From Escherichia phage NHEP29: a stretch of 64,000 nt of DNA. How positions within the stretch are numbered: the stretch's first letter is position 1; every line of letters begins with the position of its first letter. The notes beneath the pieces were generated by a model. The model saw only the letters and a list, made by a program, of their open reading frames with translations. It was not told where the DNA came from and did not search any database. Positions 11,341 to 15,296 of this stretch are shown in pieces. A program made the position numbers and the translations under genes. Location of the stretch: the sequence record PQ511150.1; one strand, written 5' to 3'.

Positions 11341-11645
11341 TATAATGTTCTCTCAAATTTGTGGAAGCATTTACGGCATTTCAATTTCAAGTTATCAGTA
11401 GTCCAGTTAACCAGTTGGACTTGGATAGTTCCACATTCCGGGCATGGATGTTTTGCTGCCGATTTGGCAGCATTTTCACGTCGTTCAACCATTTTCATGA
11501 TTTCGTTCCATGCCGGAGGAACGAACTCTTCTTCACCGTGGATTTTATCTCGCTGAACAAATTCAATCTTTGAACTATCGTCAATAAACTTAACCAAGCC
11601 ATGATTAGTGCTCATATCAATATCCTCTAAAAGACGTAGTTTCAT
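11340..11645 (-). CDS. hypothetical zinc-ribbon protein
   Basis: 101 aa with CPEC...CRKC cysteine pairs. Confidence 0.5.
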   Translation of the reverse strand: MKLRLLEDIDMSTNHGLVKFIDDSSKIEFVQRDKIHGEEEFVPPAWNEIMKMVERRENAAKSAAKHPCPECGTIQVQLVNWTTDNLKLKCRKCFHKFERTL

Positions 11646-12595
11646 TATAAAACCTCAATGGCGTTTCGTAAACCATCAGCTTTTGCATTCAGAGCTTTTA
11701 ATGATTTAGTTTGTTCTGCAATCTGGGCTTCGACTTCTTTCAGACGAGATTTGAGATATTCGCGTTCTTCTCTTAAATTATCAACTTTTTCTACTTTAGG
11801 TTCTTTAATAGGCTTAGGTTTATACGTATTAGGGTTCTTCAGCTTAATTTGAATACGAGAACTGAATAACATTGAACCGTTATCTTCGGTTTCGCTGAAC
11901 ATTTCAACAACATCCATAGTCTGTAACATCATACGAAGTTTATAAGACAACGAACGAACGGTTTTGTTGTGCTTATTAATTTCTTCGGCTTTCATGGTAC
12001 CGAGATTACGTGAGTAGTAATACGGAACCTGGATATCAATTGACAATGATGCGTTACCATTACCAGTTGGTTTGAATACTGCAGTAACCCAATCCTTAAC
12101 ATGAACCGTATTTGTACGATCATCGCCGCCTGTGAATAATTTACGTGAATGTTTAAAAAGCATATTCACTTGGTTATTGAATTCACAAGCAAATTTATCA
12201 GCAAATTTAGTTTCAGGAATGGTAGATAACCAATCAGCTAAATGAGTCTTTTTAACATCGTTAATAATAGTAAATTCAACTAAATCAGTTTTAGATGTCA
12301 CAGATTTAATAAAGCTCGGCTTCATAAAGTTTTTAATGTTATCACGAGCCACAGTAGAAGATAACAAACGAGAACGTTTGAACCATTGAAGCAGTGTCCC
12401 TAATGAATGAGAATACGCATTCTGAGTATCTTTACAGATATGATTTTCTTGACCTGTATATGTACCAAAATCTCGAAGAATACCACTTACTACATCTCGG
12501 TGTGGAACATCAAATCCTAGTGCACCAGTAGCGCGCTGAGCATGAACGTTAGCGATAAGACCTGCAAAATAATCAATGTAATGTGAACGTGTCAT
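11645..12595 (-). CDS. hypothetical protein with C-terminal coiled coil (series member A)
   Basis: 316-aa ORF; C-terminal heptad-like segment; own promoter cassette upstream. Confidence 0.6.
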   Translation of the reverse strand: MTRSHYIDYFAGLIANVHAQRATGALGFDVPHRDVVSGILRDFGTYTGQENHICKDTQNAYSHSLGTLLQWFKRSRLLSSTVARDNIKNFMKPSFIKSVTSKTDLVEFTIINDVKKTHLADWLSTIPETKFADKFACEFNNQVNMLFKHSRKLFTGGDDRTNTVHVKDWVTAVFKPTGNGNASLSIDIQVPYYYSRNLGTMKAEEINKHNKTVRSLSYKLRMMLQTMDVVEMFSETEDNGSMLFSSRIQIKLKNPNTYKPKPIKEPKVEKVDNLREEREYLKSRLKEVEAQIAEQTKSLKALNAKADGLRNAIEVL

Positions 12596-12623
12596 AATAT
12601 TTTCCTCTCGTTAAGATAGAAAG

Positions 12624-12653
12624 ATTATACTCCAACCATCCTTGGTTGTAAAC
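12624..12653 (-). promoter_or_regulatory. early-type promoter (GTTTAC -35, TATAAT -10) with palindrome CAACCA..TGGTTG in spacer
   Basis: Minus-strand GTTTAC-N18-TATAAT upstream of 11645..12595; near-identical copy at 13629-13660. Confidence 0.5.
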
Positions 12654-12657
12654 TGAT

Positions 12658-13605
12658 TTATGATTTTAATGCATTCATTGCGTTAAAAAGTTTAGAGTAC
12701 TGCAACTGGAGCTTGGTAACTACTTGTTGAGCATCACGAAGCTTAGCTTGTGCTTTGTCAAGTTCAACGGATAGTTGGTCTACAGTGGCCTTTATTTGAT
12801 TATAATGGTAATCTTCGGCAGGAAGAAGACCATTAGAGATTTCCAGTTTTGCTTCCGGTAAAGTATATACAGACGGTGTGCCGTTAAACATAACAGGTTG
12901 TGCTGAAGCTGCATTAATCTTACCGATAATCGGTGTAATAATTGACGCTTCGAACGTTGCATTTTCCTTTTTAAGATTTTGATAGTATTCAGAGTCTTTG
13001 TGCCACCATGGCGCAGGAACCTTTTTACCAATAGATACACGGGCCTGGATAGCGATATGGCCCTTATTCTTGATAGGGTTGATAATATTAAGCTCACGAG
13101 AATAAATTGCTTTAATCTGGTGAATATTATCACCTAACACTTCCAACGCTTGGTGGAATACACGAGCAACGTTATCATTCTTAGGTTTATACGTAAGAGT
13201 GAACTCATTCTCACTGATAACCATGATTTCTAACTTATCGTAAGTATATTTCAAATGTTTCATATTAATTGCTTGAGGACGAATACGAGAAGCAATGGCC
13301 ATCAGATTGTTAAGGTTATTCCGGAACTGCTTAGCGAAATATTGTCCTTCACCGCCAATACAAAAATTACGAAGTTTCTGTTTGGCTAATAAACGGCTGA
13401 ACTCACCATTTTTAATGAACTCTTTAACGGGTGTGTTAGTAACGCATTCAAATTGAGTAAACTTACGAGAAGTAATCCCATAATATGAACAGACTTCCTC
13501 AATCTCTTCAGGAGTCTTTACAGGCATACGGATAGGATTAGGACCTGGGGTATATGCGTTCGAGGTAAATTCTTTGATAAGTTCTCTACGTGTAATAAAA
13601 GCCAT
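12658..13605 (-). CDS. hypothetical protein with C-terminal coiled coil (series member B)
   Basis: 315-aa ORF; same promoter/leader cassette as neighbour. Confidence 0.6.
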   Translation of the reverse strand: MAFITRRELIKEFTSNAYTPGPNPIRMPVKTPEEIEEVCSYYGITSRKFTQFECVTNTPVKEFIKNGEFSRLLAKQKLRNFCIGGEGQYFAKQFRNNLNNLMAIASRIRPQAINMKHLKYTYDKLEIMVISENEFTLTYKPKNDNVARVFHQALEVLGDNIHQIKAIYSRELNIINPIKNKGHIAIQARVSIGKKVPAPWWHKDSEYYQNLKKENATFEASIITPIIGKINAASAQPVMFNGTPSVYTLPEAKLEISNGLLPAEDYHYNQIKATVDQLSVELDKAQAKLRDAQQVVTKLQLQYSKLFNAMNALKS

Positions 13606-13628
13606 TTTATATTCCTCATGTTGAAAAA

Positions 13629-13660
13629 TTTATTATACTCCAACCATCCTTGGTTGTACA
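13629..13660 (-). promoter_or_regulatory. early-type promoter cassette, variant copy
   Basis: TTATACTCCAACCATCCTTGGTTGTA repeated from 12626-12651. Confidence 0.45.
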
Positions 13661-14650
13661 TCATTCCTTAAGAAGTTTTACTACTTGAATAAGATTAGCT
13701 CGTTCTGTTTTATTTTTACCGTTTAAGCCTGCTAATCGTGAGATTTCATCGTCAGTCTGTTGAATAGTTACATTAAGTTCATTAATCAAAGCTTCAAAGT
13801 ATTTGATTTGCTCAGCATGTTTTGATTCAAATTTCTGAACCGGAATAACGTTCAGTTCATCAATAAGGTCTTTAAGAGCATCTTCTTGGTTGATGTCATA
13901 TTCAACTTCTTTTATTTCTTCAACGAGCTCGTCTTTATATCTAACGTCTTTTAGTCCTGGAGCTGGTCCTGAAATCTCTTCTTTAAGAGTACAAACATAT
14001 CCAATACGGTATTGGATACCGTCTCGCTTGATATCAACTTCGTCAATAAATCCACAATGTTTAAGACCAGAGCCGATTAGGTCAAAATATCCTTGACGTC
14101 GTCCTTCAAACGTTACACGAACTACTAAGACAGTTTTACCTGCAACCTTTTGAAGCTCACATTTATAAAAGTCTGTTGAACCTGAATAACGTGGATGAGT
14201 TTTAAAGTTCATCTGACGATCTAGGCCCATTTGTAAGCGTGCTGATACGGCCATAAAACGTGTTTGGTTCTCGTTAAGATGAGCAACAATCCATTTCAAA
14301 GGCATTTTACACTGTTCACGACCGAACAAATCAGTACGTCCTAGATTACGCAGGATGTTGTTAGAGTTAATCATCGACAGAACGTTAAGTTTATTCAGCG
14401 CGCTGAAGATTCCATCGGCCATTGATTTTCCGTAACCTTTACACGCTTTAATAAGCGCTCGCGGTAGATTAGTATAGATTTCAGACGGCATATGAAAATC
14501 AAATTTACTAGTCAGTAATTGATGAACTTGGATAGCAATTTGTTCATAATTAAGTGCTCTGCGATCATTATGGTCTTTAAACCACACTTTAATCTGTGAA
14601 GCACATAAACCGTTAATTTCATGTTTTACCGCATCAGATGTAATGCTCAT
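13661..14650 (-). CDS. hypothetical protein with C-terminal coiled coil (series member C)
   Basis: 329-aa ORF. Confidence 0.6.
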   Translation of the reverse strand: MSITSDAVKHEINGLCASQIKVWFKDHNDRRALNYEQIAIQVHQLLTSKFDFHMPSEIYTNLPRALIKACKGYGKSMADGIFSALNKLNVLSMINSNNILRNLGRTDLFGREQCKMPLKWIVAHLNENQTRFMAVSARLQMGLDRQMNFKTHPRYSGSTDFYKCELQKVAGKTVLVVRVTFEGRRQGYFDLIGSGLKHCGFIDEVDIKRDGIQYRIGYVCTLKEEISGPAPGLKDVRYKDELVEEIKEVEYDINQEDALKDLIDELNVIPVQKFESKHAEQIKYFEALINELNVTIQQTDDEISRLAGLNGKNKTERANLIQVVKLLKE

Positions 14651-14712
14651 ATCTATTTCCTCAGATTGAATTGGAACTCAAAACCATTATAACCCGTCCT
14701 TGGGTAAAGCGT

Positions 14713-15240
14713 TTATGCGTGAACCGTCTTTAAACGTTCTTCAAATTTCCGAAGAGTACTAATACGTTCTGCTTTCTGTTTTGTGTAGTTTGCAATACGT
14801 TCTGAAGTGAGAGCGTATCGTTCGTTTACTGATTCTTTCGTGAAGTCAGGGATTTCACGAGAAGCTTTAATTTCATCAAACTTATCGAGTACTGCCTGGT
14901 CTTCAGCGATTAAATTTTCGTACATCTCGATATCTTTCTTGATAAACTCGATATCTTCCTGGGTTACTTTGGATAAACGAGATGCTTTATCCTTTTTGTA
15001 CTGCTCGTTGGTTTCACGAGACCAGAATAATGTACGTTTTTTGTTAGTGTTTTTGTAGACTTCCACAATTCCAACTGAATCGATGATAACAATCCAATTC
15101 CAGCGAGATTTGAAAATCTGACCTCCGTCCACGGTAATCTCGTTACCATAAGCAACGTCATTAAAGAACTTGCTTTGTGCTTCAGATTTAAATTTACCGT
15201 CGTTATAATTTACCAGGTTGAAAATATCTTTAGCGTTCAT
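14713..15240 (-). CDS. hypothetical protein with C-terminal coiled coil (series member D)
   Basis: 175-aa ORF; promoter cassette at 15258-15296. Confidence 0.55.
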   Translation of the reverse strand: MNAKDIFNLVNYNDGKFKSEAQSKFFNDVAYGNEITVDGGQIFKSRWNWIVIIDSVGIVEVYKNTNKKRTLFWSRETNEQYKKDKASRLSKVTQEDIEFIKKDIEMYENLIAEDQAVLDKFDEIKASREIPDFTKESVNERYALTSERIANYTKQKAERISTLRKFEERLKTVHA

Positions 15241-15257
15241 GTTTTACCTCCAGTAGT

Positions 15258-15296
15258 TGATAGGTCTATAATAACATAACCATAGACCTTGTAAAC
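15258..15296 (-). promoter_or_regulatory. early-type promoter cassette with AGGTCTAT..ATAGACCT inverted repeat
   Basis: Minus-strand GTTTAC then TATTATA-like -10 inside a palindrome. Confidence 0.5.

Follow-up and report, generated by a model that had tools for sequence, protein, structure and literature searches.

What holds together an array of four consecutive phage genes, all of which encode proteins without an assigned function? The question is raised by Escherichia phage NHEP29 (sequence record PQ511150.1), of which a stretch of 64,000 nucleotides (hereinafter, the window) was analyzed. The genes in question, all on the minus strand, occupy positions 11645-12595, 12658-13605, 13661-14650 and 14713-15240 and encode proteins of 316, 315, 329 and 175 amino acids (aa), in exact agreement with a preliminary description of this DNA, which viewed them as a cassette family with swappable effector domains on a common C-terminal targeting module. 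We find that the 316-, 315- and 329-aa proteins are whole-gene paralogs that belong to one small, fast-diverging superfamily restricted to T4-like phages; this superfamily takes in NrdC.3, NrdC.4, NrdC.5 and NrdC.6 of phage T4 and is split in Pfam as PF26897, PF23882 and PF26899. With moderate confidence, we interpret the locus as a combination of this paralogous superfamily, gene cassettes preceded by PeSL-type elements (early promoters with a stem-loop), a putative counter-defense function, and an unrelated NrdC.8 protein that lies in the same array.

Judging by comparison with the T4 record (NC_000866) and by BLASTP, the region is the nrdC.3-nrdC.8 stretch and belongs to the hyperplastic early part of the genome of a T4-like phage of the Mosigvirus type, and the four genes correspond, one by one, to T4 nrdC.3, nrdC.5, nrdC.6 and nrdC.8. 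The 316-aa protein (11645-12595, phrog_1435), the first member of the superfamily, is the ortholog of T4 NrdC.3 (57% identity, E 1e-122) and is assigned to PF26897 (Phage_T4_Y04OP; NrdC.3/NrdC.4) through relatives that are 76-95% identical to it and carry precomputed PF26897 annotation. The second member, the 315-aa protein (12658-13605, phrog_2351), is a distant, full-length homolog of T4 NrdC.5 (22.8% identity over 333 columns, E 9e-9 in BLASTP) and contains DUF7235 (PF23882), its residues 15-314 covering positions 1-307 of the 307 in the model with 374.4 bits, compared with a gathering cut-off of 30 (hmmscan). The third member, the 329-aa protein (13661-14650, phrog_2257), is a homolog of T4 NrdC.6 (29% identity over 267 columns, E 4e-18), and its link to PF26899 (NrdC.6 type) follows from proteins P0050, P0052, P0053 and P0058, which have precomputed PF26899 assignments and align with it almost identically. 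The 175-aa protein (14713-15240, phrog_2274), the ortholog of T4 NrdC.8 with 83% identity, is not a member of the superfamily. The respective PHROGs of all four proteins have no assigned function.

Pairwise BLASTP comparison of the window proteins yields no match, a null result that, taken alone, would wrongly favor the view that these proteins are unrelated. A word-indexed search for homologs, even when started from alignments, retrieved close relatives only, and an alignment-based search for related loci retrieved 7 loci only. Among the 280-390-aa open reading frames (ORFs), BLAST delineates the families of NrdC.3 with NrdC.4, of the NrdC.5 type and of the NrdC.6 type, along with three that we denote f338, f347 and f355; cross-family matches of hidden Markov models (HMMs) and of hhalign join these families to one another, and none reaches the control families. 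In a leave-one-family-out test against a database of 1084 sequences, HMMs enriched with the proteins from the large-scale profile search described below recover all members of the omitted family, with E values of 4.8e-8 for the 316-aa protein, 1.9e-9 for the 315-aa protein and about 1e-5 to 1e-30 for the NrdC.6 lineage (4.7e-5 for T4 NrdC.6), non-members being at 0.09 or above. Furthermore, when enriched family alignments are compared with hhalign, the 329-aa lineage matches the 316- and 315-aa lineages with probabilities of 97.3% and 97.4%, and the latter two match each other with 73%, all three pairs spanning 209-215 columns, whereas six control families, including NrdC.8, stay at 1.1% or below. 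Within the entire window, the superfamily HMM matches just these three genes.

The homology extends over most of the protein length, from approximately residue 60 to the C-terminus, and the joint alignment displays four collinear features: F-K-x-S-R-L-L-S...A...L-x-N-F, F-x-x-N...L...s-R-L-x-x-G-x-D-R-Q, L..aL..M-D-x-V and a terminal helix ending in L-x-x-A-x-x-x-L-K. A profile built from the three window-type families only, when run against 1.84 billion representative proteins, detects 22 proteins at E<=1e-3, including one evident false match (a 511-aa repeat protein) and a few short fragments of the input families. The families among these matches that were not part of the input consist of proteins of 281-345 aa, most of the length of which is covered; they include a T4-NrdC.5-like protein (P0072, 1.2e-5), an NrdC.4-like protein (P0073, 1.5e-5), NrdC.6-like and f338-like proteins, and several new families. 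The component parts, namely the T4 nrdC.x ORFs, the domains of uncharacterized function in Pfam and the PeSLs, are of already known kinds; the unification of three Pfam families into a single superfamily that contains an anti-Dsr1 protein (see below) appears to be new.

The competing interpretation, in which a common C-terminal coiled-coil module for oligomerization or targeting is attached to unrelated, exchangeable N-terminal effectors in all four genes, has to be weighed against the C-terminal sequences themselves. A scan for heptad a/d periodicity of our own design, with 200 shuffles as the reference, detects heptads at residues 267-316 of the 316-aa protein and 263-315 of the 315-aa protein (p=0/200 in both) and at 279-308 of the 329-aa protein (p=0.01), and the same scan finds no heptad signal in the neighboring genes. 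Thus, the statement that each of the four proteins ends in a heptad-like coiled coil holds clearly for the three ~320-aa proteins but only weakly for the 175-aa protein (146-175, p=0.075; 136-175 in the T4 ortholog, p=0.01). The heptads lie in what AlphaFold predicts as a single long helix, which spans residues 272-315 in the 316-aa protein and, in a model with a low confidence score of 41, residues 262-314 in the 315-aa protein; this C-terminal helix probably oligomerizes. When HMMs are built from the last 70 residues alone and each family is left out in turn, strong matches to C-termini from other families are obtained for the 315-aa type (E 1e-8) and borderline ones for the 316-aa type (0.012), non-members being at 0.1 or above in both tests, which exceeds a mere resemblance in composition; the 329-aa protein has no detectable similarity in this region (E 1.6), and the 175-aa protein shows no match to the others at E<=10. 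The helical C-termini with some heptad signal in all four proteins, the C-terminal matches of the 315- and 316-aa types and the empty pairwise BLASTP results speak for domain shuffling.

Nevertheless, the N-terminal and central regions tell against it. Upon removal of the last 75 residues, and the coiled coil with them, the leave-one-out signal persists (1e-5 for the 316-aa protein, 1.3e-4 for the 315-aa protein and 2e-7 for T4 NrdC.6), 13/13, 11/12 and 19/24 members being recovered in the three families; the collinear alignment of ~210 columns supported by hhalign and the matches of the large-scale profile over most of the protein length point in the same direction. Contrary to the preliminary description, the N-terminal domains are therefore not unrelated, and the three ~320-aa proteins are diverged whole-gene paralogs rather than domain chimeras. 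In addition, the 175-aa protein, with neither C-terminal similarity to the others nor a match to the superfamily (profile E 8.9; hhalign at the control level), shares nothing detectable with them. The sole apparent case of a C-terminus joined to a different N-terminus, found as a C-terminus-only tblastn match in phage ACG-C40 (NC_019399), was rejected as a chimera because it is a deletion remnant: at 5805-6213, what is left of nrdC.5, an N-terminal piece of 71 aa, is joined by a natural deletion to the final ~70 codons of nrdC.3, with nrdC.4 and most of both neighbors gone. Taken together, these observations render domain shuffling highly improbable. NrdC.8 is an unrelated, better-conserved early protein that happens to share the array with the three paralogs.

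Several observations concern the fate of the coiled coil in relatives. The reference T4 nrdC.6 (275 aa; NC_000866, 13997-14200, minus strand) is frameshifted compared with its relatives: after '...KQIEEL', another frame yields ISIQQYDDEIFRLSGLSSKAKSEREKLIKIVDLLKS*, the exact sequence of the C-terminal coiled coil in the intact NrdC.6 (295 aa) of ACG-C40, so that either the T4 copy lacks the coiled coil or the reference contains a sequencing error. The RB69 protein named NrdC.5 (300 aa), the ortholog of the 315-aa protein of the window, shows 86% identity over 83% of the query, and its last ~50 residues are wholly divergent, probably owing to a frameshift that removes the coiled coil. In Gaprivervirus-like contigs, a 140-aa family (13589-14011, 13642-14064 and 13577-13999 in L011, L012 and L013, respectively) adjoins an unrelated family of 256-284-aa proteins and shows a weak C-terminal match to the coiled coil of the superfamily (E 0.003-0.01); it may represent a truncated or split superfamily member.

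The AlphaFold model of the 316-aa protein, obtained with a 29-sequence superfamily alignment, has a predicted local distance difference test score (pLDDT) of 82.4 and a predicted template modeling score (pTM) of 0.71, in comparison with a pLDDT of 41 for the 315-aa protein modeled from an 11-sequence alignment of its family alone, a model that was excluded from the fold searches; the gain in confidence with the superfamily alignment is in line with the paralogy. In the model of the 316-aa protein, residues 3-88 form a helical N-terminal bundle and residues 93-252 an alpha/beta core, which a flexible, PK-rich stretch of low confidence (259-271) links to a terminal helix of 44 residues (272-315). 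By extension, every protein of the superfamily is predicted to have the same succession of N-terminal helices, alpha/beta core, flexible connection and heptad helix at the C-terminus. Foldseek comparison of this model with the PDB gave no match at E<=1e-3 and hence no solved structural relative; sequence searches of the PDB and scans of NCBIfam, PADLOC and Rfam returned nothing credible either. Its significant neighbors in BFVD are only uncharacterized proteins of 309-374 aa with 12-14% identity, mostly from named T4-like phages of Yersinia, Acinetobacter, Erwinia, Pectobacterium and Serratia. Weak recurring fold matches to tail-terminator and tail-completion proteins, acyl carrier protein (ACP)-like helical bundles and LAGLIDADG-type folds serve as leads only.

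The genes are accompanied by promoter-like elements, for which the preliminary description claimed three near-identical copies. Two copies are indeed exact: a 27-nt repeat occurs at 12624-12650 and 13632-13658 with 0 mismatches (0.00 such matches expected by chance). Copy 1, upstream of the 316-aa gene (12624-12652, minus strand), consists of a -35 hexamer TTTACA (12647-12652), a hairpin CAACCA-AGGA-TGGTTG (12633-12648; 6 bp, -6.9 kcal/mol) and a -10 hexamer TATAAT (12624-12629), with the Shine-Dalgarno (SD) sequence GAGAGGAA and the start codon (ATG at 12595) further downstream. In copy 2, which precedes the 315-aa gene (13632-13660, minus strand), the hexamers are TGTACA at 13655-13660 and TATAAT at 13632-13637, and the hairpin, located at 13641-13656, is the same. 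Both are of the sigma-70 type with a 17-nt spacer and match the promoter consensus at 11/12 and 10/12 positions, respectively. Upstream of the 175-aa gene (15262-15295, minus strand), TTTACA (15290-15295) and TATTAT (15268-15273) are separated by a 16-nt spacer with a TG extension (10/12 match), and an 11-bp hairpin (15262-15289; -16.9 kcal/mol, z -4.1, 0/200 shuffles folding as well) covers the -10 hexamer.

The third supposed copy, described as a related copy at 14682 and located upstream of the 329-aa gene (14686-14714, minus strand), is a different case: what it has in common with the repeat is only the type of hairpin with an AAGGAY loop, here ACCC-AAGGAC-GGGT at 14692-14705, and TATAAT at 14686-14691. 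A promoter scan found no sigma-70 -35 hexamer at this element, and its assignment as a sigma-70 early promoter was rejected on this ground. The MotA box has the consensus (a/t)(a/t)(a/t)TGCTT(t/c)A and lies ~12 nt upstream of a TAnnnT -10 sequence. The element contains a MotA-box-like sequence AAACGCTTTA (14705-14714) with C for T at the first core base and 13 nt between it and TATAAT, i.e., a geometry resembling that of middle promoters with a putative MotA box, and it is the positional homolog of the element upstream of T4 nrdC.7. The TGCTT Mot box is mentioned in the literature on PeSLs (PMC4122927).

These elements are intergenic, with the -35 and -10 hexamers, where both are present, ~17 nt apart and an SD sequence and start codon downstream; the stem-loop is located between the -35 and -10 hexamers or over the latter, and the elements lie in a hyperplastic region, at the borders of gene presence and absence among close relatives. 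The shared 'promoter' is thus a predicted element of the known PeSL type, that is, a sigma-70-type early promoter with a stem-loop in the spacer. At the equivalent intergenic sites of T4 and other relatives, the AAGGA(T/C) loop and the -10 sequence are kept, and the stems differ yet remain complementary. In 10 distinct instances, 4/5 pairs are changed on both sides, the covariation score is 0.72 vs 0.15 for shuffled sequences, and 96% of the cells are paired, a percentage that is inflated because the instances were selected for their stem (at least 4 stem pairs required). The possibility that the intergenic hairpin is an intrinsic terminator was considered and rejected, given that it lacks a U-tract and is absent from the terminator scan.

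A promoter of the same subtype is also present elsewhere in the window, at ~35100-35140 on the minus strand (TGTACA, hairpin ACACC-AAGGAC-GGTGT, TACTAT followed by AGACCTATC), and its downstream box TATAGACCTATC recurs upstream of the 175-aa gene and of the NrdC.10-type gene.

Homologous recombination between the repeated elements adds and removes whole genes, as is directly shown for the 315-aa gene. Together with one PeSL, this gene forms a 1008-bp cassette between the two identical 27-nt repeats. The Mosigviruses AV114 and G2285 lack exactly the 315-aa gene, so that the match to a query spanning this gene shrinks from 1661 to 659 bp, and have the order 329-aa-type gene, single element, 316-aa-type gene. 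The left side of their junction is identical to copy 2 and the right side to copy 1, with the crossover inside the 27-mer; such a chimeric junction within the repeat is the mark left by homologous exchange between copies 1 and 2. With this junction as the query, the cassette-less arrangement is found in 21/155 related records. The deletion in ACG-C40, which runs from nrdC.5 into nrdC.3, is a different and larger one. Accordingly, the term cassette family is apt inasmuch as each gene has its own promoter/hairpin element and the 315-aa gene is present or absent with the junction in the repeat; the swappable units are genes, not domains.

Could the 27-mer instead be merely a conserved strong early promoter, the presence or absence of the 315-aa gene resulting from illegitimate deletion or from exchange driven by homing endonucleases? 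T4 early promoters are strongly conserved in sequence, SegB can drive segmental changes in this region of the genome (PMC13096335), and the hairpin is thermodynamically modest. The AV114/G2285 junction falls within the repeat, where sequence from copy 2 passes into sequence from copy 1, which is at odds with such an origin, and the same architecture and mechanism have been demonstrated experimentally for the PeSLs of RB49/phi1 (PMC2839356); we therefore consider this alternative quite improbable. For Mosigviruses, this junction provides a clear-cut natural case of PeSL exchange, which appears to be new.

The most specific clue to function comes from T4 itself. The T4 gene nrdC.5 is an uncharacterized early gene, expression of which from a plasmid enables a T4 deletion clone to plate again on E. 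coli MG1655 with the ECOR17 dsr1 gene (Srikant, Guegler & Laub 2022, eLife, PMC9391042). The earlier statement that no function is recognizable for any of the four proteins has to be qualified in view of this published counter-defense phenotype of a relative of the 315-aa protein. A literature search for later work on NrdC.5/Dsr1 or on other nrdC.x genes found none beyond that report. Furthermore, Gp49.2 of phage T6 inhibits the OLD defense system (PMC13096335). In the window, the pin/49.x/nrdC block at 9607-10949 corresponds to the region of T6 Gp49.2; the location of an anti-OLD protein in the same block supports the view of the whole stretch as a counter-defense island. The nrdC.1-6 genes can be lost from T4 (PMC9825161), and ACG-C40 carries the natural deletion described above. 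In addition, divergence from T4 is faster in the paralogs (23-57% identity) than in NrdC.10 and NrdC.8 (77-83%).

Given the T4 NrdC.5 phenotype, the nearby anti-OLD Gp49.2, the loss of nrdC.1-6 and the fast divergence, we hypothesize that the three paralogs would most likely be oligomeric counter-defense proteins with different targets. In the proposed scheme, each gene lies behind its own PeSL-type element, with a stem-loop and a predicted early or middle promoter from which it would be transcribed independently, recombination between the repeated elements adds or removes whole genes, and the products, by extrapolation from one characterized homolog and the genomic context, would be dispensable early counter-defense factors. 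Each paralog would bind and neutralize an immune protein of its own in the host, Dsr1 being, in genetic terms, the one counteracted by T4 NrdC.5; the globular part would recognize the target, and the C-terminal coiled coil would oligomerize the inhibitor. The proposition that at least one of the three paralogs is a counter-defense factor appears to us evenly balanced, and the narrower one, with a Dsr1-type sirtuin as the specific target of inhibition by the 315-aa protein, is rather doubtful. A still broader generalization, under which NrdC.3, NrdC.4, NrdC.5 and NrdC.6 would share one hitherto unrecognized fold and act as oligomeric inhibitors of immunity that are exclusive to T4-like phages, each paralog directed at another defense sensor (Dsr1 being the first) and shuffled via PeSLs, is unlikely at this stage; should it be correct, PeSL recombination would let phage populations mix and match inhibitors.

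Alternatively, the paralogs, while real, might not be counter-defense proteins but serve in early host takeover or nucleic acid binding and perhaps descend, in degenerate form, from an endonuclease-like domain of the LAGLIDADG type (alpha-beta-beta-alpha-beta-beta), with their variability reflecting adaptation to host physiology or origin from a selfish element. The early hyperplastic genes of T4 have many roles, this part of the T4 genome is rich in homing endonuclease genes, the core of the 316-aa model consists of a helix, two strands, a helix and two strands, and most families have a G-x-D-R/K-Q motif after the conserved core helix. This motif, however, is lost in the 315-aa protein of the window and in the Dhakavirus-type relatives of NrdC.5; searches of Pfam, NCBIfam and PADLOC yield no nuclease match; the combination of a significant fold match with a helix ending in a conserved catalytic acidic residue, as would be required of a LAGLIDADG homing endonuclease, was not found; and the sole superfamily member with a phenotype acts against a defense system. 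This alternative has, in our assessment, a low likelihood.

Besides the selection of stem-bearing instances in the covariation analysis, several points weigh against the joint interpretation of the locus as a set of paralogous counter-defense genes in PeSL cassettes. The 329-aa protein itself is weakly recovered in the leave-one-out test (E 0.022 with the full-length sequence, 0.058 with the N-domain only and 1.6 with the C-terminus only), and its membership follows from its clear homology to T4-NrdC.6 and f338-type proteins, which are recovered; the test database is small and was drawn from related phages. The repeat-type hairpins are short (-6.2 to -6.9 kcal/mol; z -0.4 to -2.2) and have no U-tract, and oligomerization is deduced from the heptad pattern only. 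A literature search found no published phenotype for NrdC.3, NrdC.4 or NrdC.6, and the 315-aa protein, being only 23% identical to T4 NrdC.5, need not have the same target.

The genomic surroundings are those of a variable region. At the DNA level, the 3.65-kb stretch has 99.5% identity to its counterparts in the Escherichia phages NHEP36 and NHEP11, and JS09-type Mosigviruses share 96-97% identity with it. On one side, it is flanked by the minus-strand genes nrdD, endonuclease VII, pin-like genes and nrdC, and on the other side, by genes for an NrdC.10-type AAA protein and an NrdC.11-type nucleotidyltransferase. In the same region of 19 other T4-like contigs, the gene content between nrdC.10 and nrdC.2 is highly variable, and nearly every such region contains 1-4 ORFs of 280-390 aa.

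Additional features of the neighborhood include a 101-aa NrdC.2-type gene (11340-11645, minus strand), the start codon of which overlaps the stop codon of the 316-aa gene (ATGA at 11645) and which, in contrast to the genes upstream, has no promoter element of its own; its product carries a zinc-ribbon-like CxxC...CxxC at the C-terminus. A GC-rich palindromic hairpin GGGCC...GGCCC (17070-17096), terminator-like on both strands, is located between the NrdC.11-type gene and a 91-aa ORF. The product name 'thioredoxin', which has spread over the nrdC.x ORFs of the window (11645-16726) and of many GenBank relatives, is a gene-name artifact, and hmmscan against Pfam detects no thioredoxin match among these nrdC.x proteins; in one paper, nrdC.8 is treated as a nucleotide reductase (PMC13275509).

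With one family that includes an anti-Dsr1 member, three orphan genes per genome become concrete counter-defense candidates, and the genomes with the cassette-less arrangement mentioned above are natural knock-outs. Phages of this kind are used for therapy, and their host range may depend on the paralogs that they carry.

With respect to T4, the phage of the window has three superfamily members, compared with four in T4, because it lacks an NrdC.4-type gene. The 316- and 329-aa proteins share with T4 NrdC.3/NrdC.4 and NrdC.6 a common length class, the motifs and the C-terminal helix, except that the frameshifted nrdC.6 of T4 itself, unlike its homolog in the window, lacks the coiled coil. T4 NrdC.5 and the 315-aa protein both belong to the DUF7235 lineage, are encoded by early non-essential genes at equivalent positions of the array and have in common a C-terminal heptad helix ending in L-x-N-A-x-N-A-L, whereas the N-terminal ~60 residues and several loops cannot be aligned. 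T4 NrdC.8 and the 175-aa protein are equal in length, both genes have an SD sequence containing GGAG, and apart from the level of identity given above, nothing notable differs between them; in T4, the GGAG of the nrdC.8 SD sequence is moderately cut by RegB (PMC1702504), and the 175-aa gene of the window keeps it.

With regard to counter-defense, a functional analogy can be drawn between NrdC.5 and DSAD1 of phage SPbeta, in that both are phage proteins that neutralize a defense-associated sirtuin; DSAD1 is reported to repress the activation of the NADase DSR2 by the tail tube protein (PMC10981675, PMC11263360). The analogy goes no further than function; DSAD1 acts on DSR2, not on DSR1, and no sequence or fold relationship was found.

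The closest parallel to the organization of the array is provided by the PeSL and PmSL elements of other T4-like phages (Arbiol et al. 2010, PMC2839356; Comeau et al. 2014, PMC4122927), which display the same intergenic layout of promoter, stem-loop, SD sequence and ATG and the same clustering in hyperplastic regions. For the PeSLs of RB49/phi1, promoter and terminator activity as well as recombination between neighboring copies have been demonstrated, and elements of the PeSL type have been mapped to the 43-51-kb region of PST/T4 (PMC2839356, PMC4122927). The PmSLs of phage nt-1 can be likened to the element of the window that has a Mot-box in place of the -35 hexamer. The stems of RB49 are polyG/polyC and those of PST/T4 are of the AGNA...TCNT kind, neither of which is seen in the window, where the stem-loops represent a distinct subtype with a short stem of 4-6 bp and an invariant AAGGA(T/C) loop, often followed by GGAG.

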